From the NCBI GenBank assembly GCA_020724725.1, contig DYGL01000002.1:1-57020 (forward strand): DNA of 57,020 bases, read 5' to 3'. Positions within the stretch are counted from its first letter, which is position 1. The number at the start of each line of letters is the position of its first letter. Made by a program: the position numbers and the translations under genes. Shown here piece after piece: positions 6,788 to 34,583 of the stretch. The stretch comes from Candidatus Microgenomatus sp. (lineage in GTDB: Bacteria > Patescibacteriota > Microgenomatia > UBA1400 > PJMF01). Under the pieces are notes generated by a model. The model was given only the letters and a program-made list of their open reading frames with translations, was not told the origin of the DNA and did no database searches.

Positions 6788-7396
6788 TCACAAAGTCATT
6801 TGTGCCCGCAAATCACTAAGTAAATTTTCGGAAATGACTTTTTTACTCACCAAGTCCTCCAAAGAACTATAAGGTCTATTACTAATTATTCCCTGCGCCT
6901 TAGCGTCACCGATTCCTGGCAAAGTTTTGAGCTGATTGAGATCAGCCTGATTGATAGAAACCAGATTAGTGTTAGTTGCTGAAGATTCAGCTTGATCGCT
7001 AGTTGCAACTGTTGAATTCTCTTCACCAAGAAAAGGAATATAAACTTTATCCTGATCTTTCAGTTCGGTGGCAAGATTGAGAGTTTTGGCCACATAAAAC
7101 TGGTCAGCATCTTCCAAAAAACCACCAGCTAGAGACAAAAGATCAGCGACTCGCTGACCAATGGTCAAACGGTAAACGCCGGGTTTTTTAACTGCCCCCT
7201 GAATATCAACCCTGATCAGACCAAGACCATCTGCCCCTTTCTCTGCAAAAGCCAAAGCTTCGCAAGAAGGACAAAAACATTCAAGAGTATTGGTGCTAGA
7301 AAATAATTTATTGAGGGCAATAATTGCCAGGAAAGCGCCAAAAATAGCTAGTGAAATCGGTAAGAAAAAACTCAAAAAAGATAAAAACTTACTCAT
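6788..7396 (-). CDS. comEA: ComEA-like DNA receptor (TM anchor, SLBB domain, helix-hairpin-helix)
   Basis: N-terminal TM helix, SLBB-like segment GAVKKPGVYRL, and C-terminal HhH segment LNQLKTLPGIGDAKAQGIISNRPYSSLEDL. Confidence 0.8.
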   Translation of the reverse strand: MSKFLSFLSFFLPISLAIFGAFLAIIALNKLFSSTNTLECFCPSCEALAFAEKGADGLGLIRVDIQGAVKKPGVYRLTIGQRVADLLSLAGGFLEDADQFYVAKTLNLATELKDQDKVYIPFLGEENSTVATSDQAESSATNTNLVSINQADLNQLKTLPGIGDAKAQGIISNRPYSSLEDLVSKKVISENLLSDLRAQMTL

Positions 7397-11807: not shown

Positions 11808-14800
11808 ATGCCTGCCAAAATACCCAAACCTACTATCTTCGCAAAGGCTACTGAAGCTAAAAACGGCTTTTTGCAGACTGTGAGTGATTTGGCCAAGCAA
11901 AATGAGGTCAAAAATGACACCGCCAAAACCCAAAAAGCAGCTCCCCATCAGCTAAATAGATCAAATAATGTCCAAGAACATCTAAAAGACTACCTTTTGG
12001 CAGTCAAACAGACCGGCTGCTCAAACTCCACAATTCGCAATTACAAGAGTGATATCAATCAATTTTTCGAATTTTGTGAAAATGAGAGCCTTGAAGAATT
12101 GAGAAGCAAACCCAAACTACTTGCTTTTGCTCACTACCAGAGGGACAAGGGCCTCAAAGAAAGTAGCATTAAACGCAAATTGGTCAGCTTGACTCAATTC
12201 AAAATTTGGCTCAAAGACCAAGGTCTACTCAATTCTGAGATCCCACTTAGTCCTTTGACCAAAAATGCACAAAAAGAACTAAATGACGAGGCTGAAAGAA
12301 AAATTATCGACAATTACTCTGCTAAGGCACTTGTTAATGAGGCGAAAGAAACACCAAATCCAGAGGAAAAAAAGACGAAAGAAAGACAAAAGCCTCGCAG
12401 TCGCTTATTTATCTTGCTTAACATCCTAGCTCTCTTCCTTTTCTTGGGAGGCTTGGCTTATTTCGCTTATCAGCAATTTGGACAAGCTATTATCTCGATG
12501 GCTTATCCTAGTACCCCTGTCGAGCCAAATCGCATCTTGTCTTATCAAGGTCGCTTGACTGACACCGCCCAAAACCCAATCTCTATCCCCACCCAGATGA
12601 CCTATTCGCTCTATGATGCCGATACTGGAGGCACCTTGCTCTGGGCTTCAAACACTTGTACCGTTGACCCAGATCAAGATGGTATTTTTAATGCCAATCT
12701 GGGAGCTGGTAGTGGCACCGGAGCTGACAATGAGAATTGTGGCGGCGCCATTGATGAGAGCGTCTTTACTGAAAATGCCAATGTTTGGCTGGAAGTAGCT
12801 GTAGGAGCGGAAACCCTTACTCCTCGCCAACCCCTACGTACCGTTGCTTATGCTGTTAATTCTTCAACCTTGCAAGGCTTACCGCCAGCTGAAATCGCCA
12901 CCAACAGCACTATCTTGATGATGAATGCTGCCGGCGAAGTTGTTCTTGGCACTGACAACCCAGTGATCAAAGCAGCGACCACCAGCTCTGGCCTGACCAT
13001 CGAAGCCAACCAAATCTTGATTCAAACCTATGCAGGATCTAATGGTGACATCATCCTCGACCCAGATGGTAGCGGCATTGTTGACATCCAAAGTGACGCT
13101 AGCGTCTCTGGAGACACCACCTTGATTGGCAACGTCTATATCTCCAGTCCTAATAGCCTAATTTTTGGTGGCACAACTGCACTAGGAGAAATTACTTCCC
13201 CAACTGACTCTGGTGCCTATCTGATTGGCGTAAATGATCAATTTACTTACTCTAATTCGACCAACGTCCAAGGTGTACTTTTTGACCTGGATGATTCAAT
13301 CAATGATCTGGTCACAGGCGCCATAGGCGTTTGGACTGACTCCGGCACTCTCACCTATCTGACTTCAACTAGTGATGATTTTGCCGTAGGTGGCAATTCT
13401 CTAGCTGGAGCTTTTTCTGTTGATGTCTCAGATAACGCAGTCAGAATTGGCTCTGGTGCCACTACTAATGCCAGCCTCAATCTTTACGCTTCTGATGGCG
13501 ACACTGGCGCCTTGACCTACACTACTGACGACGCTTTTGTCTTTAGCGGTGGCGATCTGGCTCTGGCTGCTTCTAGTTATTTGAATTGGGGCTCAACCAT
13601 CGGCTCAACTGGCTATGGCTTGCGCGACAATGCTGGCACTTTGCAATTCAAAAACTCTAGTGGCACTTGGGAAAACATTGGTTCTGGTTCTGGCAGTGGC
13701 GATTCTTTCTGGTTAGAAACAGCTGGAGCACTATATGCAGCCAACCCCACTCTGGATCTGTTGATCGGAGGGAGCGCCACAAATTCGGCTAAATTTGCTT
13801 TTACCAATATTGCTTCTGGCACACCCACCTTCTCGATGGCCAATCAAGCTTCTGCTCTAGATCTAATAGACAGCACAGTTAATGCTTTGAATATCGAGGG
13901 TGGCTTAATGTCCTTTGACACCAGTAATTCTCGAGTTGGCATTGGTACTACTACTCCAGGCGCCTTGCTCTCGCTTGCTGCTGCGACCACCAGCAATGCT
14001 CAGCTTAATTTAGCTTCATCAGGAGGAACTGATCCTAGTAGTCTGGTAACTGGTGACTTGTGGTGGGATGGTACTAGTCTGAATTTCTACGATGGTAGCA
14101 GCACCAATGACTTATTGGCTGGTGGCAGTTCCCTCTGGGTTGACGCTGGCACTTACATCTATCCAGCTGGTGGCTTACCTATAGGCAATCCCACATCTGG
14201 AGGAACTAATAAAATCAGCGGTCTCTACATGGCTGATTCTGGCCCGCTTTATTTTGGCACTGATAATGACGTTAACTTCTCTTTTACAGGTTCTACTCTT
14301 AGCACTACTCTTGGCACCAACGCTTGGAATATCGCCAATGATTTACTTTTCCTAGATGGCAGTGGCAATCGCATTGGTGTGGGCACCAATTCTCCACTGG
14401 CTACTCTAGACGTAAGAGCTCTAGATACTGATGTGGCGGTGGCCTCATTCTCTGGCTCAACCAACCTTGCAACTCTAATTATTGACCAGACAGGCTCAGG
14501 CGACCTTTTTACAGCTTCTGCTTCTGGAGTGACTCAATTCGTCATCACCAACGGTGGTAATGTTGGTATTGGCGTAGCTGATCCAACCAGCAAATTGCAG
14601 ATTGGAGGAGCTTCTTCGACCATTTCCAACAGTAGCGGTGATATCACTATAGATGCCGCCTCCAACAACATCTCTCTAGCTGGTGATAACCTGATTAACG
14701 TCGGCAATGGTCTTTTTGCTGGTTCAGTGGGCATCAATACCACTACTCCAGACAGAAGATTAGAAATTGTTGATGCTAGCAGCCCACAGTTACGTCTCAC

Positions 14801-17800
14801 ACAGACTGAAGGATCGATTTATGCAGACTTTAACATGAATTCTAATGGCGATTTGGTCATGAATGTGGATGGTATCACCAATCAATTTGTCCTTGATAAC
14901 GGTGGTAATGTTGGTATTGGCCTAAGTAATCCAGATGAAAAACTAACCGTTAATGGCTCGATTAATGCCGAAAAATACTACGACTTCACCAACAAAAACT
15001 ATTTCTTAGACCCTGCAGCTGTCTCCACTTCACTCAAAACTGCCGGTGATGCTCATGTGGGCGGCGATGTTTACGTCGAAGGTGGTGAAATTTTCTTCAC
15101 TCCAATGTCTTTCTCCACCTCAACTACTGAAGGCACTCTTTATTATGATGACGACGTTGACCATTTATACCTTTATGACGGCAATAGCACTTGGCACCGC
15201 GTGGCCCTCGACATGACTAAATACTCGACTGACGGCACCATTTCCAACCAAGATTACCTACAAATCGCTCACAATCAAAATAGTAATGACTTAACCTTTA
15301 CCGTCTGGGTGAGAGATAAAATCACCAACCTCTGGAGAAAAATCGACCCTACTAGCTCAAGTGTCGACCATGACCTGAGTAATGAATTCAATCCAGAATT
15401 TACCCAAAAAGAAAAGGTTTCAGAAATTAAACTCCAGTACAAGGAAAATAACTTAGGTACCGGCGCTGATGGCTCCATCACTATCTCTGGAACGACTAAC
15501 TTAAATACTCAATTCCCCAGTGGCAGATCTTGTGCTGATGCAGTGATGTATAGCGTCTCAAGTTTAACTAGTACCACTGCCGTACTCACTTCTTCTCCTG
15601 CTACTCCTTCATGTTTAGCTCCCAATGATGAAGTCTTACTAATTAACTTGGCTGGAGATAACACTTCGGTCACTAATGTGGGTAATTATGAAACCTTAAG
15701 AGTGGAATCTGTGGTGGGTAGTACCGTAACCTTTAAGACTGCCAAGACTAGATGGTATGGAAGAGGAGCAAGTGATGACACCGGTATCGGTACAACTGAA
15801 GGCACGCAAAGAGTAATGCTACAAAGAGTGCCTAACTACGTCAATGTAACTGTTAATAACGGTGGCTACTTGGTTCCTTCTGCTTGGAATGGTGCTACTG
15901 GAGGTGTAATGTTCTTTAGAGCCACTGGGACTGTATCTGTGGCTGGTGGTGGATATATTCACACCAATGGTATGGGATACCGAGGTGGCGGTTACTTTGG
16001 AGCTTGGTATGGTGGCGTAGGCGGTGAATCAATGTGGGCAGACAACGTCTATGGTGGTGATGGTGTTGAAGGTGGTGGCATGGGTGGCTATTACAATGCT
16101 GGAGGTGGATACACTCCATACGGTGGTGGTGGAGGTGGTGGTGGTGCCAGAGGTCATGATTCACCTGCAATTGGAGCTGGTTCTGCTGGTACTACTACAA
16201 GAGGTGGTGCCGGAGGTGGTGGAGGTGGAACACATTCTACTAACAATTCTTATCACGCTCGTGGAGGAGGTGGAGGTGGTGGAGGTGGTGGAGGTGGAGC
16301 TGGTGGAGGTGGTGTAGCTTGGGGAAACAACGGTGCTGCTGGAGGTGTGGATGCTAGTGGTAATGGTGGTAATGGTTACGCTCCAGATCATGCAGGAGGT
16401 GGTGGAGGTGGTGGTGGTGGAAGAATTACTACTCCAAATAATCTTACTCAGCTCAGATTTGGCTCTGGTGGTGGAGGTGGTGGAAACGGTGAAGTTTATC
16501 AAGTCCAATACACTGGAGGAGCTGGAGGAAGTGGTGGTGGTGTTGTGTATATTGCTGCCAACACCATTAGTAATAGCGGATATATATTAAGCAACGGAGG
16601 TGCTGGTGCAGCAGAATCTTGTCATAGTAGCAATTGGTGTGGAGGTGGTGGAGGTGGTGGAGCTGGTGGCTCAGTAAAACTTGTTGCCAACACCATGACT
16701 ATTGGAGCTAGTTTGGTACAAGCTGCTGGAGCTGGTGGTGGTGGAACCTACTGGGTTGGAGGAGCTGGAGGAAGTGGGAAGATTGCGATCTACTCTGCTG
16801 GAGCTGTTAGTGGAACAAGTTCACCCACCTATTCTCCATTAAGCTTGGAATACGCTAATTACGCCATTTTCACCTCCAAAGAAATCGCTACTCCAGATGC
16901 TACTGCTTACAACACCATTGCTTGGTCTGAAGATTTAGATACCAATGGCGAGATTCAGATTCAAACCAGATCTGGAGCAAGCTCTAATTCTACAGATGGG
17001 ACTTGGGAAGCTTGGAAGCCAGTGGTGAATGGGACGAATGAAATATCTCTAGAGAGTGCTAACAATCATGCTTCTTGGACAACTAGTACCGCTACTACTT
17101 ACGAAGGCGACATTTTACGTTATGTCAAAACTTTTGAAGATGAAAATGAAACCAATAGTGCTAATCTGACCAAAGTGGCTTTTGCTGGTAGTGGCAATGC
17201 CTACATCGAATCAACTTTCTCCAGTCAAAATCTAACAAATTACGACTATATCACTGTCTGGGTTAGAGGTAGTGCTAGTGGAGAAACCCTTAAACTTGGT
17301 ATTGGCGAAGCAGCTGGCAATGAGCAGGAAGAAACTGTTTTCATTGATCAAGCTAATGTCTGGCAAAAAGTGTACTGGGATATCACCGACATCTCCAGCG
17401 GTAGTAAAGATGCTATTACCAAACTTAGAGTTACCGGCACTACTCCAGGCACAACTTTCTATGTCGATAACGCCAAAGCAGCTCGCTATCTGACCACCAA
17501 CACTGGTTCGACAGTTTACTCTACAGCCGACGAATATTTCCAATACCGAGTCATTCTCAGTACCACCAATGTACTCAATAGTCCCAGTATTTCTCAAATC
17601 AGACTAAACCTCACTACTTCAACTAATGGCACCTTTAATATGGATGTCGACCAAGTGGGCTTGATCGATCAACAAGATAATACTGATAGTTCAATTCGCA
17701 ATAAAGAACCCATTACCCTCGACCGTCGACTCTATGACACTGGTACCGGCGCTGATGGCTCCATCACTATCTCTGGAACGACTAACTTAAATACTCAATT

Positions 17801-20800
17801 CCCCAGTGGCAGATCTTGTGCTGATGCAGTGATGTATAGCGTCTCAAGTTTAACTAGTACCACTGCCGTACTCACTTCTTCTCCTGCTACTCCTTCATGT
17901 TTAGCTCCCAATGATGAAGTCTTACTAATTAACTTGGCTGGAGATAACACTTCGGTCACTAATGTGGGTAATTATGAAACCTTAAGAGTGGAATCTGTGG
18001 TGGGTAGTACCGTAACCTTTAAGACTGCCAAGACTAGATGGTATGGAAGAGGAGCAAGTGATGACACCGGTATCGGTACAACTGAAGGCACGCAAAGAGT
18101 AATGCTACAAAGAGTGCCTAACTACGTCAATGTAACTGTTAATAACGGTGGCTACTTGGTTCCTTCTGCTTGGAATGGTGCTACTGGAGGTGTAATGTTC
18201 TTTAGAGCCACTGGGACTGTATCTGTGGCTGGTGGTGGATATATTCACACCAATGGTATGGGATACCGAGGTGGCGGTTACTTTGGAGCTTGGTATGGTG
18301 GCGTAGGCGGTGAATCAATGTGGGCAGACAACGTCTATGGTGGTGATGGTGTTGAAGGTGGTGGCATGGGTGGCTATTACAATGCTGGAGGTGGATACAC
18401 TCCATACGGTGGTGGTGGAGGTGGTGGTGGTGCCAGAGGTCATGATTCACCTGCAATTGGAGCTGGTTCTGCTGGTACTACTACAAGAGGTGGTGCCGGA
18501 GGTGGTGGAGGTGGAACACATTCTACTAACAATTCTTATCACGCTCGTGGAGGAGGTGGAGGTGGTGGAGGTGGTGGAGGTGGAGCTGGTGGAGGTGGTG
18601 TAGCTTGGGGAAACAACGGTGCTGCTGGAGGTGTGGATGCTAGTGGTAATGGTGGTAATGGTTACGCTCCAGATCATGCAGGAGGTGGTGGAGGTGGTGG
18701 TGGTGGAAGAATTACTACTCCAAATAATCTTACTCAGCTCAGATTTGGCTCTGGTGGTGGAGGTGGTGGAAACGGTGAAGTTTATCAAGTCCAATACACT
18801 GGAGGAGCTGGAGGAAGTGGTGGTGGTGTTGTGTATATTGCTGCCAACACCATTAGTAATAGCGGATATATATTAAGCAACGGAGGTGCTGGTGCAGCAG
18901 AATCTTGTCATAGTAGCAATTGGTGTGGAGGTGGTGGAGGTGGTGGAGCTGGTGGCTCAGTAAAACTTGTTGCCAACACCATGACTATTGGAGCTAGTTT
19001 GGTACAAGCTGCTGGAGCTGGTGGTGGTGGAACCTACTGGGTTGGAGGAGCTGGAGGAAGTGGGAAGATTGCGATCTACTCTGCTGGAGCTGTTAGTGGA
19101 ACAAGTTCACCCACCTATTCTCCATTAAGCTTGGAATACGCTAATTACGCCATTTTCACCTCCAAAGAAATCGCTACTCCAGATGCTACTGCTTACAACA
19201 CCATTGCTTGGTCTGAAGATTTAGATACCAATGGCGAGATTCAGATTCAAACCAGATCTGGAGCAAGCTCTAATTCTACAGATGGAACTTGGGAGGCTTG
19301 GAAACCAGTGGTGAATGGGACGAATGAACTCTTAGTTGATTCCTTAGACGACCATACTAGTTGGACTGGCGCCAATGTGACCATGGCTGAAGGAGATGTT
19401 GCGCGTAATGTCGATTACTATGAAGATGAAGATGAAGCAACTGTTGGCAACACTGCCAAAGGTACAGCTACAGCAGCTAACGGCACCATTACCAAAGCCA
19501 TTACTAGTACCAACCTTTCTAGCTACAGATACCTTTCCTTCTGGGTACGTTCTTCTGTGGCTGGTGAAAGTATTAAGCTAAGATTTACCAATAACGTCAC
19601 TAATAATGAGAAGGCCTTCTACATCGAAACTGCCAACGTCTGGCAGAAAGTTTACTGGGACATCTCTGGATACACTAGAAATGATGTCAATAATTTGAGA
19701 TTTACCGTCGTGCCTAATGGAGCGATTGTGCGCTTGGATAACATTGAGGCTGGTAACTACCTGAGCACCAACTCTGGCTCAACCATTACTTCCACCGCCA
19801 ATGAATATATTCAATATCGCGCCATCTTGACTACCACTAGTGAACTTAATTCACCTACTCTTGGAGAAGTGACTATTAATATTACTGATCTAAGTGGTAG
19901 TAGAAACATTTTGGACAATGTAGCCAACCAAAACACCGTCGATATTTACAACCAAAACAGTCGCGTTAATTTAACCACCAAAGAATTGGATAATATCAAA
20001 TCAAGTCAGATTCTTAAAAAATTTGACAGTGTTACTCAGTCTGGTGGAATTGACTCAGGCACTGGCGCTGATGGCTCTATCACCATTACTGGTTCAATCA
20101 ACTACAACACTCAAGAAGCTATTAGCGGTCGAGATTGTCTGGAGGGAGGCGATGCGCCAAATTATAATGTTTTAAGTTTAACCACCAACACCGCCACTCT
20201 TAATTATGCTCCTTCTACCCCCTCATGTTTGGCTCCTGGAGATGAAATCCTTCTCATCAACCTAATGGGAGACAACACTTCAGTCGAAAACGTTGGCAAT
20301 TATGAGACTCTTAGAATTGAATCTGTAAATGGCACCACTGTGACCTTCAAAACTGCTAAGACTAGATGGTACGGCCGTGGTGCTAACGATGACTCGGGAC
20401 TCGGAACTACTGAAGGCACGCAAAGAGTAATGCTACAAAGAGTGCCTAACTACGAGAATGTAACAGTTAATAACGGTGGCTACTTGGTTCCTTCTGCTTG
20501 GAATGGGGTTCGTAATGGCGTGATGTTCTTTAGAGCAACCGGCATAGTCTCTGTAGCTGGTGGCGGATACATTCATGCTGGAGGATTGGGATATCGCGGA
20601 GGTGGTTATTATTCATCTTGGTATGGCGGTGTGGGTGGTGAATCAATGTGGGCAGACAGCACCTACGATGGCGTTAACTTTACCGGTGGAGGTATGGGCG
20701 GCTACTACAACGGAGGTGGTGGTTACACTGCACGTGGTGGTGGAGGTGGTGGTGGTGGCGCCAGAGGTCATGATTCACCTTCTGCTGGAGGCGGTTCTGC

Positions 20801-23800
20801 TGGTACTACTACAAGAGGTGGTGCTGGTGGAGGTGGCGGTGGAACGCACTCTACAAATAACACCTACCATTCTCGCGGTGGAGGTGGTGGCGGTGGAGGC
20901 TATGGTAGTGCTGGCGCTGGTGGAGGTGCCTGGGGCTACAATGGCGGAAATGGAAGCTTAGATGCTAGCGGCAATGGTGGAAGTGGTTATGTTCCAGATC
21001 ATGCAGGAGGTGGTGGCGGTGGTGGAGGTGGAGCAATTACTACTCCAGATGATTTGTCTAAATTAAGGTTTGGCTCAGGTGGAGGTGGTGGCGGCAATGG
21101 TGAAGTTTATCAGGTGGAATATGCTGGTGGAGCTGGAGGAAGTGGTGGTGGAATTGTTTATATCGCAGCTAACAACATCAGTAACGGTGGCAGTATAAAT
21201 GCAAATGGAGCCAGTGGTGCAGCAGAATCTTGTCATAGTAGTAATTGGTGTGGAGGTGGTGGAGGTGGCGGAGCTGGTGGCTCAGTAAAACTTGTTGCCA
21301 ACTCCATGACTATTGGAGCTAGTTTAGTAAGAGCTGGAGGAGGATCTGGTGGCGGTTCATACTGGATTGGAGGCACAGGCGGTGTCGGTAAAGTCGCTAT
21401 CCACTACTCTGACTCTGTTTCCGGTACTACCTACCCCACTTATCAAGCAGCTGAAGTGCCCAGCTATCACTACTCCATGATGATTTCTGATGAAATTCCA
21501 ACTGCCAACGCTGTCAGTTATGACAAGTTGCGCTGGACTGCTGATCTAGATGACTTTGGTCTGATTACCTTCCAAACTCGCTCCGGACCAACGGACAACT
21601 CTACTGACAATTCTTGGGAGGCTTGGAAACCAGCTGTGGCTAGCACTAATTATTTGACACTAGATAATGCCAATACTCACACTAGCTGGACCAGCACTGC
21701 TGCCACTCTTACTGTTAATGATGGTGATGTGACTAGAGATGTCGATTTCTTTGAAGATGAGGATGAAAGCACTGCTGGCAACGCCACCAAATTGATAATT
21801 AGCTCCAATAATGTCGGTGTTGCGGAGCGCAACATTGGCTCTGCCAACCTGACCAACTACGATTACATCACTTTCTGGGTCTACTCTAGTCGTAGTGGCG
21901 ATAGCATCACCTTGGGTTTTGGTGAAGATCAGGCAGATGAACACGAACAGATGTTCTACATCGAATCGGTTAACACTTGGCAAAAGGTTTACTTTGACAT
22001 CAGCAAAGTACCTAGCCACGAAAAAGATGGGGTGAAGTATTTGCGCATTACACCAACCTACAGCACCAGTTCTTACAACCTCTATTTTGACAACATACAA
22101 GCGGAAAAACTGATGACTGATCCGGCTGGCTCAACCATCGCCTCCAAGCCAAATGAGTATGTTCAATACCGCGCCATCTTAACCAGCACCAAAGATGGTC
22201 ACCACCCCACCCTCTACAACGTCAATCTAGACTGGAACAATGGCTTTAAAGTTGAACAAACCGACTCCAACACCGTTCGCCTCTACAACTACACTGGCGA
22301 CGAACAAAACATGCGCCTTGATGTGATTGTCTTTGGTGCTGACTTGGCTGAGTGGTACACAGTCGAAGATGCCAGCATTGGCCCAGCTGACCTAGTTGCT
22401 ATCACTGGTGAGATGGATGAGTACGGCGTGCCAATTCTGCGCAAGGCAGTTAAGAGCAATGATCCAATGTTAGTCGGTGTCATTTCTACTCAAGCTGGCC
22501 AAGAACTTGGCATTAAAGCAGACAACCGTCGCCTCCTTGCTCTAGATGGTCGTGTGCCGGTCAAAATTGATCCAAGCAGTCCTGCTTTTGAAAAAGGCGA
22601 CCATCTCACTTCTTCTGGTAAACCAGGTTTAGCACGCAAAGCAAAAACCGGAGAACTCAGCATTGGTCGTTCTTTTGAAGCTTGGAAGCCAAATGTTGGT
22701 CAAGAAAAAGTTTTGGTCTTGGTCAACGATGCCATGTCTACTCCATCCTTCAGCGAACAATTAGTTGATGGCGTAGTTGAAATTTCCGATTTGCTCAACC
22801 TCAAGATTCAAGATGGCTGGGAAGTCGTCAATTATGGCACTGGCGAAAGTGTTAAGTCTGCTGCAGCTCTGGCTCAGGCCATTATTGGTCGACTCAAAGC
22901 TGGTCAAATCGAAGTTCAAGAAATCAAAGCTCCAGAAGGAGAAAAGCTAAGTCTGGAAGGTAGCAACATCGCTATCCAGCTTAATGATCAGGAAGCCTCT
23001 GGCAGCACTTCTCTGGGTAAATTGATTATTCAAAATCAAGATGGCCAAACCGTAGCCAGTTTCGATAGTGAAGGCAACGCTTTCATTAGCGGCGATCTGG
23101 ACGTAGAAGGTATTAGTCGCCTTGGTCAACTTCTCAGTAATGAAGCAAGTGTTTCTAGTCTCTTGGCTGAAAACGCTACCGTCTCTGGAGAATTAATTGC
23201 CGGTCGCGTCGAAGCTGAATCAGCTCGCCTTGATTTCATCGAAGGCAAATTAGCTGAACTCGAAAACGCCACCGTCTCTGGCACTCTCTACGCCAACAAT
23301 ATCGAGGCCAATAACATTAATGCTAATGTCATCAGCGGTCTCCAAGAACGACTGACCGGTCAGATTGAAAAAACCCTCAGTGAACCAAGCTTACTAGCCA
23401 GTCTCTTTGGCGAATCTACTCGTCAAACTGAAGAATACTTAGAGCAACTGATGGCAGAAATCAACCAAAATACAAATTCAGCAGATTCGACGACTACTGA
23501 GTTGTCAGACTTAGAAGAAGAAACTCAAGATCTGACTTTAATCGCCGAAAGTGCCTACGTAAATGACTACTTTGAGGTCAACGGCAACGCCATGATCGCC
23601 AATTCTCTCAAGTTAGGTCAAAATTTAATGGTTGGCGAAGGCTTGGTCTTGAGTGAAAACTTCATCAGCTATCAGCCAGACTTTAGTCAAGATTTGGAAC
23701 GCGATCCAAATGATTTCACTTTCTCTATTCAACCAACTGGCATGGGCAAGCTCTCCTTGATGGCTGACTTAATGCAACTTGATGGCCAAGGCTTTGTCAG

Positions 23801-24368
23801 TATCAATGGCGACCTGAGAGTGGCTGGTGTGCTTGATGTTGAAGATGACTTAAAAGTCAAAGATACTCTTTTGACCAACCTCATCAGTAGCAATAAGCCA
23901 GGAGAAAATATTAAGGTTCAATTAGCCTCTCTCGAGACCAATGAAGACTCACTTGAGGGTGGAGATTTGATGGTGGCTCGCAGTAATTTCGAGTTTATTG
24001 ATGAAAACCAAACTCCAGTGGCTAGTTTCTCAGCCACTGGAGACCTATCTCTAATTGGTTCCTTACGTCTAGGTCAGGCTCTAGAGATAGCCAGCGATTC
24101 TGGCGAACTAGTTAACAACCGTAGCGCTGGTCAAGCGATGATGCCAGCTGGTAGCACTGAGATAACGATCAGTAGTGATAGAGTTGAAGCAGGCAGCATG
24201 ATTTACATCACCCCTCTCAACTCTACCAATAACCAAGTTTTGTACGTCAAAAACAAGATGACCGACAGTCCTTTTACTCCTGAAAATGAAGCTCAATTCA
24301 CAGTAGCAATCGATTACGCGCTCGGTCATAATGTAACTTTCAACTGGTGGATTATTCAGCTTAACTAA
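11808..24368 (+). CDS. giant membrane-anchored surface fibre-like protein (4,186 aa): N-terminal integrase SAM-like domain, TM helix, tail-fibre-like repeats, three glycine-rich/beta-sandwich modules, peptidase-G2-like segment
   Basis: Uninterrupted 12.6-kb ORF. Domains by position:
- 11973-12230: XerC/D-type core-binding pattern.
- 12405-12470: TM helix LFILLNILALFLFLGGLAYFAY.
- Further in: repeats of the form GNVGIGxxxPxxKLxV.
- 15456-22240: three ~760-aa modules.
- 22338-22690: segment ADLAEWY...LVGVIS...LDGRVPVKI. Confidence 0.9.
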   Translation: MPAKIPKPTIFAKATEAKNGFLQTVSDLAKQNEVKNDTAKTQKAAPHQLNRSNNVQEHLKDYLLAVKQTGCSNSTIRNYKSDINQFFEFCENESLEELRSKPKLLAFAHYQRDKGLKESSIKRKLVSLTQFKIWLKDQGLLNSEIPLSPLTKNAQKELNDEAERKIIDNYSAKALVNEAKETPNPEEKKTKERQKPRSRLFILLNILALFLFLGGLAYFAYQQFGQAIISMAYPSTPVEPNRILSYQGRLTDTAQNPISIPTQMTYSLYDADTGGTLLWASNTCTVDPDQDGIFNANLGAGSGTGADNENCGGAIDESVFTENANVWLEVAVGAETLTPRQPLRTVAYAVNSSTLQGLPPAEIATNSTILMMNAAGEVVLGTDNPVIKAATTSSGLTIEANQILIQTYAGSNGDIILDPDGSGIVDIQSDASVSGDTTLIGNVYISSPNSLIFGGTTALGEITSPTDSGAYLIGVNDQFTYSNSTNVQGVLFDLDDSINDLVTGAIGVWTDSGTLTYLTSTSDDFAVGGNSLAGAFSVDVSDNAVRIGSGATTNASLNLYASDGDTGALTYTTDDAFVFSGGDLALAASSYLNWGSTIGSTGYGLRDNAGTLQFKNSSGTWENIGSGSGSGDSFWLETAGALYAANPTLDLLIGGSATNSAKFAFTNIASGTPTFSMANQASALDLIDSTVNALNIEGGLMSFDTSNSRVGIGTTTPGALLSLAAATTSNAQLNLASSGGTDPSSLVTGDLWWDGTSLNFYDGSSTNDLLAGGSSLWVDAGTYIYPAGGLPIGNPTSGGTNKISGLYMADSGPLYFGTDNDVNFSFTGSTLSTTLGTNAWNIANDLLFLDGSGNRIGVGTNSPLATLDVRALDTDVAVASFSGSTNLATLIIDQTGSGDLFTASASGVTQFVITNGGNVGIGVADPTSKLQIGGASSTISNSSGDITIDAASNNISLAGDNLINVGNGLFAGSVGINTTTPDRRLEIVDASSPQLRLTQTEGSIYADFNMNSNGDLVMNVDGITNQFVLDNGGNVGIGLSNPDEKLTVNGSINAEKYYDFTNKNYFLDPAAVSTSLKTAGDAHVGGDVYVEGGEIFFTPMSFSTSTTEGTLYYDDDVDHLYLYDGNSTWHRVALDMTKYSTDGTISNQDYLQIAHNQNSNDLTFTVWVRDKITNLWRKIDPTSSSVDHDLSNEFNPEFTQKEKVSEIKLQYKENNLGTGADGSITISGTTNLNTQFPSGRSCADAVMYSVSSLTSTTAVLTSSPATPSCLAPNDEVLLINLAGDNTSVTNVGNYETLRVESVVGSTVTFKTAKTRWYGRGASDDTGIGTTEGTQRVMLQRVPNYVNVTVNNGGYLVPSAWNGATGGVMFFRATGTVSVAGGGYIHTNGMGYRGGGYFGAWYGGVGGESMWADNVYGGDGVEGGGMGGYYNAGGGYTPYGGGGGGGGARGHDSPAIGAGSAGTTTRGGAGGGGGGTHSTNNSYHARGGGGGGGGGGGGAGGGGVAWGNNGAAGGVDASGNGGNGYAPDHAGGGGGGGGGRITTPNNLTQLRFGSGGGGGGNGEVYQVQYTGGAGGSGGGVVYIAANTISNSGYILSNGGAGAAESCHSSNWCGGGGGGGAGGSVKLVANTMTIGASLVQAAGAGGGGTYWVGGAGGSGKIAIYSAGAVSGTSSPTYSPLSLEYANYAIFTSKEIATPDATAYNTIAWSEDLDTNGEIQIQTRSGASSNSTDGTWEAWKPVVNGTNEISLESANNHASWTTSTATTYEGDILRYVKTFEDENETNSANLTKVAFAGSGNAYIESTFSSQNLTNYDYITVWVRGSASGETLKLGIGEAAGNEQEETVFIDQANVWQKVYWDITDISSGSKDAITKLRVTGTTPGTTFYVDNAKAARYLTTNTGSTVYSTADEYFQYRVILSTTNVLNSPSISQIRLNLTTSTNGTFNMDVDQVGLIDQQDNTDSSIRNKEPITLDRRLYDTGTGADGSITISGTTNLNTQFPSGRSCADAVMYSVSSLTSTTAVLTSSPATPSCLAPNDEVLLINLAGDNTSVTNVGNYETLRVESVVGSTVTFKTAKTRWYGRGASDDTGIGTTEGTQRVMLQRVPNYVNVTVNNGGYLVPSAWNGATGGVMFFRATGTVSVAGGGYIHTNGMGYRGGGYFGAWYGGVGGESMWADNVYGGDGVEGGGMGGYYNAGGGYTPYGGGGGGGGARGHDSPAIGAGSAGTTTRGGAGGGGGGTHSTNNSYHARGGGGGGGGGGGGAGGGGVAWGNNGAAGGVDASGNGGNGYAPDHAGGGGGGGGGRITTPNNLTQLRFGSGGGGGGNGEVYQVQYTGGAGGSGGGVVYIAANTISNSGYILSNGGAGAAESCHSSNWCGGGGGGGAGGSVKLVANTMTIGASLVQAAGAGGGGTYWVGGAGGSGKIAIYSAGAVSGTSSPTYSPLSLEYANYAIFTSKEIATPDATAYNTIAWSEDLDTNGEIQIQTRSGASSNSTDGTWEAWKPVVNGTNELLVDSLDDHTSWTGANVTMAEGDVARNVDYYEDEDEATVGNTAKGTATAANGTITKAITSTNLSSYRYLSFWVRSSVAGESIKLRFTNNVTNNEKAFYIETANVWQKVYWDISGYTRNDVNNLRFTVVPNGAIVRLDNIEAGNYLSTNSGSTITSTANEYIQYRAILTTTSELNSPTLGEVTINITDLSGSRNILDNVANQNTVDIYNQNSRVNLTTKELDNIKSSQILKKFDSVTQSGGIDSGTGADGSITITGSINYNTQEAISGRDCLEGGDAPNYNVLSLTTNTATLNYAPSTPSCLAPGDEILLINLMGDNTSVENVGNYETLRIESVNGTTVTFKTAKTRWYGRGANDDSGLGTTEGTQRVMLQRVPNYENVTVNNGGYLVPSAWNGVRNGVMFFRATGIVSVAGGGYIHAGGLGYRGGGYYSSWYGGVGGESMWADSTYDGVNFTGGGMGGYYNGGGGYTARGGGGGGGGARGHDSPSAGGGSAGTTTRGGAGGGGGGTHSTNNTYHSRGGGGGGGGYGSAGAGGGAWGYNGGNGSLDASGNGGSGYVPDHAGGGGGGGGGAITTPDDLSKLRFGSGGGGGGNGEVYQVEYAGGAGGSGGGIVYIAANNISNGGSINANGASGAAESCHSSNWCGGGGGGGAGGSVKLVANSMTIGASLVRAGGGSGGGSYWIGGTGGVGKVAIHYSDSVSGTTYPTYQAAEVPSYHYSMMISDEIPTANAVSYDKLRWTADLDDFGLITFQTRSGPTDNSTDNSWEAWKPAVASTNYLTLDNANTHTSWTSTAATLTVNDGDVTRDVDFFEDEDESTAGNATKLIISSNNVGVAERNIGSANLTNYDYITFWVYSSRSGDSITLGFGEDQADEHEQMFYIESVNTWQKVYFDISKVPSHEKDGVKYLRITPTYSTSSYNLYFDNIQAEKLMTDPAGSTIASKPNEYVQYRAILTSTKDGHHPTLYNVNLDWNNGFKVEQTDSNTVRLYNYTGDEQNMRLDVIVFGADLAEWYTVEDASIGPADLVAITGEMDEYGVPILRKAVKSNDPMLVGVISTQAGQELGIKADNRRLLALDGRVPVKIDPSSPAFEKGDHLTSSGKPGLARKAKTGELSIGRSFEAWKPNVGQEKVLVLVNDAMSTPSFSEQLVDGVVEISDLLNLKIQDGWEVVNYGTGESVKSAAALAQAIIGRLKAGQIEVQEIKAPEGEKLSLEGSNIAIQLNDQEASGSTSLGKLIIQNQDGQTVASFDSEGNAFISGDLDVEGISRLGQLLSNEASVSSLLAENATVSGELIAGRVEAESARLDFIEGKLAELENATVSGTLYANNIEANNINANVISGLQERLTGQIEKTLSEPSLLASLFGESTRQTEEYLEQLMAEINQNTNSADSTTTELSDLEEETQDLTLIAESAYVNDYFEVNGNAMIANSLKLGQNLMVGEGLVLSENFISYQPDFSQDLERDPNDFTFSIQPTGMGKLSLMADLMQLDGQGFVSINGDLRVAGVLDVEDDLKVKDTLLTNLISSNKPGENIKVQLASLETNEDSLEGGDLMVARSNFEFIDENQTPVASFSATGDLSLIGSLRLGQALEIASDSGELVNNRSAGQAMMPAGSTEITISSDRVEAGSMIYITPLNSTNNQVLYVKNKMTDSPFTPENEAQFTVAIDYALGHNVTFNWWIIQLN
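15456..22240 (+). repeat. three tandem ~2.3-kb coding modules inside giant gene 1 (R1 15456-17741, R2 17742-20058, R3 20059-~22240)
   Basis: R1 and R2 appear nucleotide-identical over 15456-16999 = 17742-19285 (offset 2286), spot-checked in several 60-nt blocks. The track also shows identical alternate-frame ORFs at this offset. R3 is a diverged copy with the same protein architecture. Confidence 0.9.
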
Positions 24369-27300
24369 TGAGAAAAAAGTGGATCAAACTGCCCCGCCAG
24401 CTGCTCGCTCAAGCCAAAAAAATTGACTTAGTGGCGTGGCGTCCATATTTGTTAGGCTTAGTTGCCGTGACCTTGTTGGCCATTTTGATTGCTTGGATTC
24501 GCCAACTACCTCCCAAAGCTCCCAAATTTAAGGCTCTAGATAATGAGACTTATCAATTTCAAGCCAAAAACAAGCTTTTTAGTAGCAAACTAGGCATTAG
24601 AGAAGAAAAACCGATTGTCTCTTTTAATCTACCAAGTGGCGAAAATCTAGTTTTTTCCTATGCCGAAGCGACTGAAAACCCCAGCTTACAAAATCAGGGT
24701 GATAAAAGCTTGGTTTTCTCTCAAGTCGAAGCTGGAGTCGATTTGCGCTACGAAACACTAGCCAATGGCCTCAAGGAAGAAATCATTCTTCACCAGCCTC
24801 GCCAAAAAGATGAAGATGCTCATGTCTTTACTTTCGACAGCACTTTTCAGGGAGCTTACCCAAAGGAAATAATCGAGGGTTTCTCTGGCAGAGCTTTTTA
24901 TAATCAACAAGGTGAATATCTTTTTCACTTCGAAAAACCATTTGCTATTGATGCATCAGGCAATCGCACTGAGTCCGTAGTCTTACAAATTGAGGAAAAA
25001 AGTAGCTCAAAAATCCCAGACTTGAAGAAAAATGCACAAAATGAACTTGCCTACACTATTCGCCTAACTGTTGATGAAGCTTGGCTTAGCGATCCCGCTC
25101 GCGTCTACCCAATCATCATTGATCCAACCATCGTTCATGATGAAAGTAGTGAATTTGCAACTGGTAGTTTTGGTCGCAGCAAAGACACTGGCTCTGGCTC
25201 TTCACCAAGAATTGAAAGCTATTATCAGGAACTAACTGCCGATCCTCACACCATCGGACTTTGGCATTTCAATGAAACTAGCGGCACTCAGGCTCTAGAT
25301 AAATCAGGTAACAACAATCACGGTATTGCTAGTGGTACTACCATTGTTGATGGTTTGATAAACAAAGCTAGAAGTTTTAATGGTAGCAGTGACTATGTTG
25401 AAGTTGGCGACCTAGATATTATTGATAACACCAAAACCCTTAGCACTTGTGCCTGGGTTTATCACGACAGTGACAGCGCTGACCAAGAAATTATTGCCAA
25501 AGCTGGCACCGGCAATGATGGCTTTCTATTTTTTAGAGACGAAGTTGCTTTCATTAGTGCCAGAACTGATGTTTACACCGCCTTTGTTAGTGATTCTGCT
25601 GACGCAGACAGTACGAGAGTTGAAAGTGTCACTAACGCTGGCTTAGCTAATAGCTGGAATCACCTTTGCATGACTTTTGAAGCTGGCAAAGAACAGGGTC
25701 TAAGACTTTATATCAATGGTCAAGAAGATCCCAATAGTCCAGTGAGCACCACTACTATAGGGGCCATCGATGCTGGCAGTTATCCATTGCGCATTGGAGC
25801 TCATTCGGGAGGCGGATCAATTTTTCATGGAGAAATCGATGAGGTTATAATTTCCAATCGAGTTTTCACCGCCGAAGAAATTAAATCCATGGCCACTCGC
25901 AGTCCTTACTCTACCTACACCTCTCCGGTCATAGATCTGACCGGTGTTAATGCTTGGAACTCTTTTGCTTGGACAGAACTAGGCATCAACACTGGCAATG
26001 GCGAAACACTCAAAGACAACACCAGCTTAGTCGCTCAATGGAATCTCAATGAAACCAGTGGTACCACCGCTACCAACAACGCTGGCTCTTGCGGAGCAAG
26101 TTGCAATGGAACTTTGACTGGTTTTGACAGCACAGCTTCTCAAGATGCTGATCCAGATTCTAGCTGGACTGCCAATAATCGTCGCTGGGGTGCTGGCGCA
26201 CTAACTTTTGATGGAGTTGACACTTATGTCACTATTCCAGATCATAACTCTCTTTCTTTTGGGAGTGGCGGCACCGACTCTCCTTTTAGTATTAGCATGT
26301 GGATCAATCCACGCTCAATAGCCACAACCACTGGAGATTGGCTGATCAATAAAAGAAACGCCGATGCTTCTGATGAGTACCAGATGGTTTTAACTACTGA
26401 TGGCGGCATTTCATTTATTGTTATGTCTGGAAATGCTAATTACATCGGAAGACGTGCCTATAATTTGATTAATCCTGGCGGTTGGTATCACATCGTTGCG
26501 ACCTATGATGGCTCCAAAACAAATGCCGGAATAAAAATCTACATCAATGGCAAAAGAGCTGATTCACTGGATAACAACGTCGGTACCTACACTGGCATGT
26601 CCAATGGACCTCACCCGATTACCCTCGGCAAGCCCGGCTGGACCAGTTCGCTTTATTTTGACGGCACCATGGACGCTGTCTCAATATTTGGCCGCGAGCT
26701 CACTGCCGCCGAAATCCTCTCCAACTACCAAACAGGCAACATTGAACTGCAAACTAGAGTTGGTAGTAGCGCCAATGCTGATGATGGTACTTGGGATGCT
26801 TGGGTGCCTCTGACTAGTGAAGCTCTGCTCAAAAGCTTTGACTTAGACAGAAGTGATAACTGGCTCTACCGTCGCCAAATTCCTATCACTCACACAGGCA
26901 GTGCAGTTACCCAGTATCAAGTCTTGGTTGAGAATTTAGACACAGCAACCTTGATTAGCGCTGGCAAAATGCAAAGTGACTGCGATGATATGAGATTCAC
27001 CAACACTAGTGGCGAGCTACTTAATTACTCAATTATTGGCAACACCTGCAACACCAGCAACACTCAAGTTTGGGTACAAACTGATTCCATTCCTAGCAGT
27101 GGTGGCAACACCATCTATTTATTCTATGGCAATCCTAGCGCTCAAAAGTACTCTGACGAAAACAAGACTTTCAGTTATGCAAGCGAAAAACCTGTTGCCT
27201 ATATTCTGGACAACAGCGTTGATCAGCTAGAATTAATTTCCCTTGCCAATAACAATACCATCACTCACAACTCTGTCACTAGGTCGCTCAATAAATATGC

Positions 27301-30300
27301 TACCAGCAATTTCACTTCCATCAGTCAATTCGGAGTAATTTCTGCTAAAAAACCATTTAATGCCGATGATGCTTCTGATGATACTGATGGCATTGTGCCA
27401 ATTTCAGCTGCTGGCACTGAATTTCTTTTTACAGCTCGCAGCACTGCCACTTATACCTTCTATGCTGTTGCTCCTTGGGGCAATGCTACGGTTGATATCT
27501 ATAATGCTGGAGGCAATTGTACTGGTAATAATGTCACTAGTGCCGGTGCCACTATAAACTGCGCTACTATTGCTGCAGGCGCAGTCAGAATTACTAGTAC
27601 CGTGCCTGTGCTGATTTTTGCTGAAACCACTACCACTGATCCAATGATTCTAAGGCCGGCCTCAATGCAAAAATGGATTGGCACTGGAAATAGAATTACT
27701 TCTGGTGCAAGTGGTGCCGATTACCGTTATTACAGCTCAACTATAGCAACGGAAAACGATCCTGCTGATCTCGGTGCTAACAGCAATGCTACTTTAGCTG
27801 AAAATTCCTACGGTCATGGACCGGCATTTCTGGTTAGAAGCACAAACAACCCAATCGGCTTTAATCAATATGGCGATGGAGATGGAAGCGACGGCATTAT
27901 GCATATGACTTTGCCAGAAATGAGCTCCACTTACGGCTCAGCTGTAGGCAATACCGACTACATTTCTATTGCCTCTGACCAAGCAGCCAACTGTACTCTC
28001 TACAATGCTTCAACTAAAGCAGCGGTCAGTGCCGGTACAGCCACTTCAGCTAACAGTGCAGTTTATTTCTTGGGTTTTGGCACCGGCTCATCAAGCTCAG
28101 TTGTCGCCGCACCATGGTTTATGGAATGCTCTGCTCCAGTGGCGGCCTACTATCAAAAAGGGGCTGACTCAGAATCGGGTCTTTTTGGACCAAGCATGAT
28201 GCGCCAATTCACTTACCCTACCCCAAGCTTGGGAGCGATTGGTAGTGAAGAAAGCATTAGCTCTTATAGTGGCAATTGGATCGAAGTTGCAGCAGAAAAT
28301 CAAAAAAATCTTCAATTCACTAGCGACACTCAAATCAAGATGGAAGGCAGCGCCAGTCAAAAAATAGAACTAGGCTCAACCGCCGTTGATGAACACACCG
28401 TCGGTCTCTGGCATTTTGAAGAGACTGGTGGTAGTGGGGCTTACCTAAAAGACGCTACTGGAAACGCTAATCATGGCACTCCAACTGGAACTAGTCTGGC
28501 AAAAGGAAAAATTGGTAAAAGCAGAAGTTTTAACGGAAGCAGTGATTATGTGGTAGTACCGGCCGGATCAGGGTCAAGCTTAGACATAGATAATAATCCC
28601 GTTACAATTGAGGCATGGGTTAAACCCAACACGCTTAGTGGTGAACAACATATTGTTAGCAGAGGTCAAAGAGGAACAGCTGGTTGGGGCATAGCCATCA
28701 ACTATTCAGCTGGCTTAGCCAATGTTGGACTGCACGGAGGCAGTAATTTTAATGGAACAAGCACCTTAGTTGCTGACAACTGGTATCACATAGCTGGAGT
28801 CATTAATGGCGACAATTCAGCTCTTTATGTAAACGGCAAACTAGAAGCAACAGGGACTGTAAATGTGGTTGCTTCAGACTTAGATTTGCACATCGGCTCA
28901 TCTTGGGATGGATCTACAGAAGCATATTTTTTCGACGGCGAAATCGATGAAGTCCGCATTTCCAACATTGCTCGCTCTGCTGAAGAAATTGCCGAAAGTT
29001 ATCGTTTAGGTAGAGATCAATATTTAAATCAAACAATCTCCTCCACCAACCTTTCGGCACAAAAAACTCTTCCCTTCTATATAGCCGCCGACAAGCCGGG
29101 CTCATATCTACAAGCTACACTTGGTGAGTCAGCTTTTGCCACAGGATTACCAGATAGTAACACTGTTGGCTATTGGAAGATGGATGATGAAAATAGCTCT
29201 AGTGCCACTGGCGGAACTATCACTTATGCCAGTGGCTACACTATTCACACTTTCACTAGTTCTGGATCTTTTGTTACCAACACTCCTGTCAATGCTGAAG
29301 TTTTGGTAGTTGGAGGTGGAGGTGGTGGTGCCAACACTGGCTCTGGAGGAGGTGCAGGCGGCTATGTCTACAAACAAAGTTTTCATGTTCCAAAAGGTGG
29401 TTATCCTATCACAATTGGTGCAGGTGGTGCGGGTGGAGCTTCAACTGGAGCAGCGGGAGCCAAAGGCGGAGATTCAGTTTTTTCCTCCATAACCGCTGAG
29501 GGTGGTGGAGGTGGTGTTACTCACGGAGGCACCGCTGGTGGCAATGGTGGCTCTGGAGGTGGTGGTCCAATTAGAACTGCTGCTCCAACCGCAACCGGAG
29601 GTACTGCTTCTCAGGGCAACGTGGGTGGTGCTGGTTTTGTGCAAGCCAGTTGGACTGGTAATAGCGGCGGTGGTGGTGGTGCGGGTGGTGCAGGAGTTGC
29701 TGGCGGAAATACTGCTGGCACAGGTAATGGTGGTGTTGGTTTGGCTAATTCAATTAGTGGCGCTAGTGTCTACTATGCCGGCGGTGGAGGTGGTGGTGAG
29801 GTTAATGGTAGTTATGTTGGTGCAGGAGGAAATGGAGGTGGTGGCAGTGCAGTTTTAAATGCGGCTGGTGGTAACGGCACCGCTAATACTGGAGGTGGAG
29901 GTGCAGGAGGAAGTTATACCGGCACCTATTTTAATGGTGGCAATGGTGGTTCTGGCATTGTCATAGTCAGATATCCGACTAATACTGCTAGTTATGTAAA
30001 AGATAGTTCTGGCAATAATTTGGATGCCGCTGATAATGGATCGATTTCTAGTACTGGAAAAATAGGCAAAGGCAAATACCTCAATGGCACAAACAATACC
30101 ATTAGTGTTAAAAACAATTCTAAAATCAACATCAATGGTTCTGGCAGTGCTGCCACCATTGAAATGTGGGTTAAGCCAAACACTTTGGTGCCGAGTTGGC
30201 AAAGCATTGTATATAAAAATAGTGGTGGAAATGATGGAAGCGAAACCACTTATAGCGACCGTCAATATGCGATGTGGCTTAATAGCACAGGCTATATACA

Positions 30301-32629: not shown

Positions 32630-32645
32630 TGGTCTCTTTTGAAAT

Positions 32646-33113: not shown

Positions 33114-33120
33114 AATTTTC

Positions 33121-33669: not shown

Positions 33670-33681
33670 AAATAAATAATT

Positions 33682-34392: not shown

Positions 34393-34419
34393 CTTGTTAT
34401 CATTTAATCTTAACATAGG

Positions 34420-34583
34420 CTTACGAGTTTCGCACTTTAAAACAGTCACGCTACACTAAAACTCCTGCTTTACTGAACTAATCTCTTCTTTTCGCTCAGA
34501 GAAGTCGCTGTTAATCACCTAAAGCAAGTTTAAGTTTTTTGTCAGCTCCTTCTATGGACTGTTTGAAGTGCAAAACTCGTAAG
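34420..34583. promoter_or_regulatory. structured intergenic element, copy A (27-bp closing helix plus conserved ~109-nt interior)
   Basis: Arm 34420-34447 (CTTACGAGTTTCGCACTTTAAAACAGTC) pairs with arm 34557-34583 (GACTGTTTGAAGTGCAAAACTCGTAAG), with one mismatch, one G-U pair and one bulge. The interior shares the blocks GAAGTCGCTGT and GTCAGCTCCTTC(T/A)ATGGACT with copy B. Confidence 0.4.

Follow-up and report, generated by a model that had tools for sequence, protein, structure and literature searches.

We describe here an intragenic repeat in a giant gene, open reading frame 1 (ORF1; 11808-24368, forward strand, 4,186 aa), that lies in a 57,020-nt stretch of contig DYGL01000002.1 (Candidatus Microgenomatus sp., assembly GCA_020724725.1); this whole stretch is hereafter called the window. 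In the window sequence, two tandem modules of the encoded protein are identical at the nucleotide level in their N-terminal halves, whereas their C-terminal halves diverged long ago, and recurrent gene conversion within the gene is the best explanation of this pattern and a quite probable one. The two copies would represent the N-terminal halves (N-domain, glycine-rich domain and linker) of old tandem paralogous modules of ~760 aa. The giant protein, from a Patescibacteria (Candidate Phyla Radiation) bacterium, would be anchored in the membrane and carry these modules outside the cell. Recurrent homologous recombination within the gene, by gene conversion and possibly also by unequal crossing-over, would keep these N-halves identical. 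The tract would start where the homology between the modules starts and end where the modules become too different to pair, and the beta-sandwich that follows would thereby stay distinct in each module. The conserved halves could at the same time provide flanking homology for swapping the variable half between lineages.

Comparison of the two copies shows no mismatch over 1,544 nt between 15456-16999 and 17742-19285 (both on the forward strand). The offset of 2,286 nt is a multiple of 3 and hence in frame, and both copies are located inside ORF1. Each copy corresponds to codons 1-514 of its module, covering the N-domain, the glycine-rich domain, the linker and its tail. The left edge is sharp: in 30-nt blocks compared at the 2,286-nt offset, identity is ~0.3 up to 15449 and 1.0 from 15480, the last mismatch being at 15455, and the repeat begins at the first codon of the module (GTGADGSIT). 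On the right-hand side the tract is extended by 17000-17042, which pairs with 19286-19328 and contains three differences (17000 G/A, 17009 A/G and 17018 G/A), all of them synonymous and at third codon positions. From 17043/19329 onward the two modules differ at most positions. The third module (20058-22247, forward strand) is an older paralogue, with a synonymous divergence (dS) of 0.8-1.3 from the repeat in its N-half; its N-half is 73-78% identical to the repeat and its C-half ~50-57% identical to those of the other modules, and the exact stretches it has in common with the repeat measure only 26-46 nt. A first-pass annotation made from the window alone had reported the identity of the two segments with their in-frame 2,286-bp period, three synonymous sites in the next ~42 nt followed by an abrupt drop, and a third module diverged throughout; the full comparison agrees with this description.

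The three tandem modules start at aa 1217, 1979 and 2751 (nt 15456, 17742 and 20058), and each consists of an N-domain of ~135 aa, a glycine-rich domain of ~310 aa, a linker and a C-half. Between modules 1 and 2, dS is 0 over codons 1-514, compared with a dS above 2 and 43% aa identity for the C-halves (17043-17741, which also holds a tail, is unique and forms the single-depth spacer between the repeat copies, and 19329-20057; both forward strand). Synonymous sites are saturated in the C-halves but without any difference (dS of 0) in the N-halves, so that the modules must be old and only the N-half young, and a recent duplication of a whole module is excluded. Identity at synonymous sites beside anciently diverged parts of the same units, as expected from conversion, is thus what we found. 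The underlying process may be RecA-type gene conversion, and selection could contribute to keeping the C-halves different. The right-hand stop may be due to mechanics alone (heteroduplex rejection) or may be under selection as well (loss of binding diversity).

To examine the copy number of the repeat, we took advantage of Logan k=31 contigs from the metagenome runs X1/X2 (same data), X3 and X4, which were mapped to the region. The runs holding the sequence derive from subsurface and rock metagenomes, and SRR8750958 is one run of this organism. Contig boundaries in all of X1/X2, X3 and X4 fall at 15485, 16970, 17771 and 19256, k-1 = 30 nt inside the repeat ends. In X1 the left-flank contig stops at 15485, 30 nt into the repeat, and the contig covering 15456-15824 has a depth of 16 as compared to 7.7-8.6 in the flanks. 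A contig of depth 8.3 (16970-17771) links the copy 1 exit with the copy 2 entry, starting 30 nt before the first copy-specific site and ending 30 nt into copy 2, and a contig of depth 7.4 begins at 19256. The depth ratios, 1:2:1:2:1, agree in X1 and X4, and the repeat is found at twice the single-copy depth in X1, X3, X4 and X8 (a sister lineage, see below). Because the single-copy contig is both exit and entry, any genome containing it has two tandem copies, and these results demonstrate that the repeat is not an assembly duplication but that two copies are real. A comparison of read depth across the repeat with its flanks had been proposed in the first-pass annotation; contig depths provide this comparison, with the repeat at ~2x the flanks. 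A k=31 multiplicity map built from the window itself predicts every contig break inside the repeat except one; the predicted breaks arise because module 3 has exact stretches of 32-46 nt in common with the repeat at four places.

The one break not predicted concerns a linker patch at 16787-16873 (forward strand; codons 445-473, equivalent to 19073-19159 in copy 2), for which the contigs offer two paths. Path A, on a contig of 147 nt, has the sequence given in the window. The contig of path B measures 153 nt and consists of 30 nt identical to 16757-16786, 86 unaligned nt and 37 nt matching 16867-16903 with one mismatch; it swaps the 80 nt at 16787-16866 for 86 divergent nt and is therefore 6 nt longer, in frame. 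An 80-nt frameshifting deletion at 16786/16867 was considered and rejected, since the contig is 153 nt long with the 86 unaligned nt mid-way, which makes it an in-frame substitution path. A B-like path in X7 reads, in frame over its last 30 nt, TTAYYNSYK followed by VFTSKE, as compared to SLEYANYAI followed by FTSKE for path A. In the source lineage as in its sisters, path B has a depth close to that of a single copy. The depths of A and B were 6.5 and 4.5 in X1 (flanking repeat pieces 14.7 and 16.6), 20.4 and 18.1 in X8 (flanking pieces 37.8 and 39.8), 6.7 and 10.4 in X6 (repeat contig 12.2), and 22.6 and 55 in X3; in X14, A was not seen and B, at 10.1, feeds both exits. As both paths have about single-copy depth in three lineages (X1, X8 and X6), one copy probably carries B. 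We consider it likely that one copy carries A and the other B, the window assembly having threaded both through A, in which case the true exact blocks would be ~1,331 nt and 126 nt. In X3 the depth of B tracks that of the spacer (55 vs 57), which hints weakly at copy 1 as the carrier of B; it should be underlined that the contigs can neither tell which copy holds B nor exclude isolated single-nucleotide differences between the copies. The claim of identical copies thus stands for the window sequence, which is exact, but strict identity in the organism is doubtful owing to the A/B bubble in independent contigs. The accompanying warning about short-read assembly was apt in this sense: the duplication is real, and one difference between the copies was probably lost in assembly.

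With regard to related populations, sister lineages are present in runs of other studies, namely X6 (aquatic), X7 (groundwater), and X8 and X14 (sludge-type). Relative to the window, X8 differs by 3.6-5.4% over housekeeping genes (32205-40000) and by 6.5-7.7% over the giant genes (21372-31300). The left flank of the repeat differs by 9.3% in X8, 9.7% in X14 and 2.7% in X6, the module 1 C-half by 6.8-9.0%, 6-9% and 7.7%, respectively, and the repeat pieces by 7.4-13% in X8 and 5.1% in X6. In X8 the repeat pieces have depths of 35-42 against ~20 for single-copy sequence, and both exits are present (depths 21.9 and 20.1), leaving a double-depth contig at 16890-16999. X6 has a single 1,404-nt repeat contig with a depth of 12.2 compared to 6.8 in the flank. 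Both C-halves are retained in the sister lineages, and the array must therefore be older than the divergence of these lineages from that of the window. Each sister lineage appears to have its own internally identical repeat, as judged by contig depths and difference counts, which would amount to concerted evolution. Paralogous repeats are accordingly closer to each other than orthologous ones, with 0% divergence within the window versus 5-13% between lineages.

The tract ends also appear to differ between samples. On the right-hand side, X1, X8 and X14 have their exits separating at 17000/19286. In X3 the separation is at 17043/19329 and the exit contigs start at 17013/19299, so that identity of the copies there appears to reach 17042/19328. 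Judging from contig ends or depth doubling, the left end lies at ~15507 in X8 and ~15386-15416 in X6 as compared to 15456 in the window. Position 16907 is T in both copies in the window and X1, and C in X3, X8 and X14; a lineage-specific T in both copies is expected if a change in one copy reached the other by conversion. Scanning of JGI metagenome contigs with the 30-mers 16757-16786 (repeat) and 19329-19358 (exit 2) gave 0 matches for each, protein searches with module 1 and with the module 2 C-half gave no match above 63% identity, and an exact look-up of the giant protein and of one neighbouring protein in public assemblies returned no record. Since no GTDB relative exceeds 54% aa identity (see below), the same-species comparison rests on the Logan contigs only.

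The pattern recurs in more distant relatives. One genome per GTDB species was scanned with the module 2 C-half, which gave 37 loci, all with at most 54% aa identity and all from Patescibacteria lineages, though some records are labelled otherwise. Locus L002 has an exact tract of 1,196 nt at an offset of 2,136, L017 an exact tract of 1,200 nt at an offset of 2,145, and L031 a tract of 1,397 nt at 99.86% identity, of which the first 1,382 nt are exact. In L010 (~920 nt) and L009 (~590 nt) the exact tracts are interior, flanked by sequence of 65-78% identity in the former and by homologous but diverged sequence in the latter; such interior tracts are a hallmark of conversion. The other loci showed 78-92% identity, so that adjacent modules range from 78% to 100% identity across genomes. 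All tract offsets in these homologues are in frame, within stop-free frames of 2,295-4,717 codons. As in the window, the tracts of L002, L017 and L031 start at the first codon of the module. Those of L002, L017 and L010 stop right after the last glycine-rich strand (ending in GLVA, GVVA and GII, respectively), a position homologous to 16786, where the A/B patch of the window begins (after GKIA). Tract ends that lie within homologous sequence and vary between lineages were accordingly found in L010 and L009, between X1 and X3, and in the A/B patch. The two parts of the module also differ in how they cluster: a paralogue from the same genome was the nearest neighbour for 31 of 45 N-domains compared to 8 of 57 C-halves (Fisher P = 1.4e-8).

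The N-domain family is large, with at least 1,432 representatives at E <= 1e-3 among 1.84 billion cluster representatives, and many of its members are proteins of 3,000-7,700 aa with 2-5 modules. Some module homologues (P0048, P0096, P0105 and P0113) are fused to prepilin N-termini, and the module may therefore sometimes be displayed on pili. A syntenic orthologue of 2,235 aa was found in a genus-level relative (L039; GCA_964537665.1, 1503-8210), whose LeuRS is 81% identical. Its first ~990 aa and its last ~620 aa are shared with ORF1, and its middle consists of a single different glycine-rich region with no modules of the ORF1 type, which implies that the array is a lineage-specific insertion. 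Many of the homologous loci stop at a contig end in or near a module (L003-L008, L014, L015, L018, L021 and others). Several homologue records are labelled Gammaproteobacteria, Pseudomonadales or TM6, and the binning or labelling of those genomes may be wrong.

A single recent event, either an unequal crossover or partial duplication, or a whole-module duplication followed by import of a C-half, could also leave two identical N-halves, the identity then reflecting youth alone. The left edge of the repeat coincides with the edge of module homology and fits duplication as well as conversion. In addition, the module 2 C-half looks newly imported (0-1.4% divergence, see below), so that its replacement after a duplication is conceivable. 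Such an event would, however, have to be repeated independently and identically in each of the sister lineages, which have both C-halves and apparently their own internally identical repeats; nor does it fit with tract ends that appear to vary among samples, with the interior tracts of L010 and L009, or with identities between adjacent modules of 78-100% across genomes, which suit repeated episodes. We consequently regard a single event as unlikely. The first-pass annotation had left it open whether the N-terminal and glycine-rich half was homogenised or newly duplicated, and the dS above 2 of the C-halves, the sister lineages, the interior tracts and the clustering of the N-domains favour homogenisation.

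Several points nevertheless weigh against recurrent conversion as the explanation. The A/B patch means that homogenisation is not complete. The exact identity in the window, L002, L017 and L031 may derive in part from assemblers collapsing bubbles and walking a tandem loop twice. The population evidence consists of k=31 contigs and not reads, with no phasing, with minor variants dropped and with noisy depths, and contig depth over the glycine-rich part runs 15-35% low. The divergences between lineages are difference counts in contig-mapping output and not inspected alignments, no sister-lineage sequence having been retrieved. Furthermore, the X8 graph is not fully resolved, in that a 400-nt contig (equivalent to 15810-16209, depth 42.5) takes the module 3 entry; this piece is probably common to all three modules, which makes its depth ambiguous.

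Next we considered the C-half, which the first-pass annotation had described as a beta-sandwich kept different between modules. AlphaFold2 modelled the whole module with a mean pLDDT (predicted local distance difference test) of 75.7 and the module 2 C-half with a mean of 72.7 and a core above 90. A Foldseek search of the PDB with the core of the module 2 C-half gave 192 matches at E <= 1e-3, the best being to carbohydrate-binding modules (CBM11, CBM4, CBM6 and CBM29; E from 2e-6, target TM 0.5-0.65), and a search with the whole module gave, more weakly, the same CBMs together with phage tailspike beta-helices. As modelled, the C-half is a CBM-like beta-sandwich that superposes on solved CBMs, which together with the 43% aa identity bears out the earlier description; at the sequence level, none of the C-halves gave a Pfam match at E <= 1 that would assign it to a CBM family. 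From its predicted fold the C-half may bind a glycan or a host surface. The confident fold core begins at about module residue 526, and the identity between modules 1 and 2 stops at residue 528.

The module 2 C-half is far less diverged between lineages than its surroundings. Over 19256-19661 we counted 0/406 differences in X8 and 0/402 in X14, over 19635-20453 11/819 in X8, over 19326-19860 1/535 in X6 and over 19924-20285 0/362 in X6. Even at the lowest baseline (3.6%), the chance of 0/406 is ~3e-7. The repeat tail (16890-16999) is nearly unchanged as well, with 1/110 differences in X8. Divergence of 0-1.4% in this C-half compared to 4-9% elsewhere points to a recent transfer or sweep of the cassette between lineages, and the positions of these segments indicate that the exchanged cassette would be bounded by the repeat tail and the N-domain of module 3. 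Gene conversion or cassette exchange in a surface protein had been suggested at the outset, and the near-identity of the module 2 C-half across lineages lends support to the exchange. DNA uptake through the ComEC and ComEA-like proteins encoded nearby is a plausible route for it, natural competence having been demonstrated in Patescibacteria (PMC10633639). Of the 31-mers of 19300-21300, 6-11% occur in each of five sludge metatranscriptome runs belonging to two studies, which suggests that the cassette region is transcribed in sludge communities.

Another reading is a dedicated variation system, in which the repeat arms would drive in-frame gain and loss of the 2,286-nt unit and the capture of foreign CBM-like cassettes by transformation. 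Besides the module 2 C-half common to several lineages, some C-half types are 85-91% aa identical across distant (class-level) Patescibacteria lineages compared to 53-64% for neighbours within a gene, and the competence genes lie close by. The depths in X3 (flank 36, spacer 57, repeat 95) are such that the repeat equals flank plus spacer, as if some cells had an extra unit; X3 is, however, a mixture of strains, its flank depths ranging between 35 and 51, and the ratios can be explained otherwise; nor did any joint contig turn up that would correspond to an array with a unit lost or added. The present data do not tell a selected mechanism apart from a passive consequence of homology, and we consider a dedicated system very unlikely. 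Somewhat more credible, if still doubtful, is that the N-halves serve as portable homology arms by which, together with competence, CBM-like host-recognition cassettes are swapped, gained and lost within the gene and between lineages. The A/B linker patch and the C-half would then travel as one cassette, and the module copy number would vary in populations. Least probable of all is an assembly artefact, with only one copy present or with substantially different copies whose consensus was duplicated: the repeat of 1.5 kb is longer than typical short-read inserts, the window lacks path B at 16787-16873 and homologous genes are often at contig ends in other assemblies, but two distinct single-depth entries, two exits and an exit-to-entry contig are present, the doubled depth recurs in four runs, and besides the A/B bubble no unexpected break occurs in 1.5 kb.

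Recurrent conversion of this kind has parallels in known surface proteins. In the Gram-positive proteins alpha C and Rib of group B Streptococcus, SasG/Aap, Esp and Bap, whole repeat units are homogenised. The ORF1 repeat resembles theirs in being long, in frame and identical including synonymous sites; intragenic recombination likewise maintains such repeats, whose copy number changes readily and which tend to collapse in assembly. It differs in that only the N-terminal two-thirds of the 760-aa module is homogenised while the CBM-like domain is distinct in each module, and in that the unit is much longer (2.3 kb) and the host belongs to the Patescibacteria. Gene-specific sweeps and the exchange of surface-protein segments between related lineages by homologous recombination are a general phenomenon, and the segment from 19256 to ~20450, diverged by 0-1.4% between lineages that are 4-9% apart elsewhere, resembles them; here the segment is a single domain cassette between a homogenised repeat and the N-domain of the next module.

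Segmental gene conversion creates surface variation in pilE/pilS of Neisseria, vlsE of Borrelia and msp2 of Anaplasma. The same applies to MgPa of Mycoplasma genitalium (PMC2169797). As in these systems, conserved segments flank variable ones and can act as recombination anchors, giving mosaic surface proteins. In contrast to them, all modules are here expressed in one ORF, and it is the conserved part that is homogenised, the variable part not being replaced in a programmed manner. A search of the window (57 kb) for silent donor cassettes found none: direct repeats with a 40-nt exact seed all have an offset of 717, 2286 or 2328, and all such repeats are consequently inside the two giant ORFs. 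Cassette-based antigenic variation of the pilE/pilS or vlsE type was rejected on this ground, as no silent cassettes lie outside the giant ORFs within 57 kb. A target of a diversity-generating retroelement was rejected as well, since the repeat is without mismatches and no reverse transcriptase domain was present in the ORFs scanned (some small ORFs were left out).

The protein encoded by ORF1 opens with a cytoplasmic integrase-type SAM-like domain and a single transmembrane helix; an extracellular region follows that is long and rich in beta structure, then the three modules of ~760 aa and finally a C-terminal region. The first domain (11991-12224, forward strand; aa 62-139) is like the core-binding domain Phage_int_SAM_1 (PF02899; E 3.9e-9, 37 bits vs a cut-off of 22.3). 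It is followed at 12405-12473 (forward strand; ~aa 200-222) by the hydrophobic stretch LFILLNILALFLFLGGLAYFAYQ, which was read by eye from the translation and is predicted to form the single transmembrane helix. The catalytic domain of recombinases (RHRY) was not found in ORF1, full recombinase models reaching 24-34 bits vs cut-offs of 220-335. An active tyrosine recombinase (XerC/D, integrase) was thus rejected for the N-terminal domain, since only the SAM-like part matches and a transmembrane helix and an extracellular region follow. A start with a SAM-like domain and a transmembrane helix is also seen in the orthologue L039 and in the homologue P0032, while the homologues P0011 and P0036 have MerR-type DNA-binding N-termini in its place; a putative DNA-binding head (11991-12473) is here joined to a surface protein. 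In a Pfam search of the modules, the N-domain, the glycine-rich part and the C-halves all remained without a match. Like Gly_rich_2/AgmC_N proteins, each module gave an AgmC_N match (NF047640; 87 bits for the glycine-rich part), which is sub-threshold against the cut-off of 275, and there was no match to Gly_rich_2 (PF21722) in ORF1 at E <= 0.01. The ORF1 modules thus differ from such proteins in being below threshold for both models.

A true Gly_rich_2 match (79 bits vs 24.3) was obtained for the second giant gene, ORF2 (24368-32629, forward strand, 2,753 aa), which also encodes four LamG domains, DUF2341 and Ig-like domains. The ORF1 stop and the ORF2 start share one base (TAATG, 24364-24370), and this overlap suggests translational coupling of the two giant genes. 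ORF2 holds an exact in-frame repeat of 247 nt (31271-31517 = 31988-32234, offset 717 nt) with sharp edges in two Ig/FN3-like units, so that partial homogenisation is not confined to ORF1. The X8 contigs break near this repeat, with ends at 31300 and 32017 and a start at 32205.

The neighbouring genes are chromosomal (LeuRS, ComEC, a ComEA-like gene, Obg, Rho, pilins and type IV secretion parts), and the best named relatives of LeuRS, at 65-68% identity, are from Patescibacteria and Paceibacteria. The DNA-uptake genes, ComEC (5296-6639, reverse strand) and the ComEA-like SLBB/HHH gene (6788-7396, reverse strand), are located 4-6 kb upstream of ORF1. Directly downstream of the giant genes are three pilin-like genes (N_methyl motif, T2SSG) at 32646-34449 on the reverse strand, and the same order is seen in L039. 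A VirD4/TraG-like coupling protein and two genes resembling type IV secretion system pilins, within 41564-43708 and 52919-54714, represent parts of a Patescibacteria type IV secretion system. Rfam and tRNA scans of the region found nothing.

Surface proteins with nucleotide-identical repeats, and mosaics produced by conversion, are well known; the instance described here concerns a protein family that is uncharacterised and a phylum that is uncultivated, with the recurrent half-module pattern and a cassette common to several lineages as added features. It is probable that published short-read genomes of Patescibacteria misrepresent such genes, with collapsed differences, as in the A/B patch, and with contigs ending inside modules. 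Patescibacteria live attached to host cells, and their host recognition is largely unknown. The pattern found here is that of a conserved, recombining scaffold with distinct binding cassettes, one of which is unchanged across subsurface, groundwater, aquatic and sludge lineages. If the CBM-like domains bind glycans on the host surface, this would be a concrete route for changing attachment specificity. The repeat arms would in addition permit the 2,286-nt unit to be lost or gained in frame. Should the N-halves indeed act as homology arms, the protein family would constitute a recombination-driven switch of host range or attachment for episymbionts.

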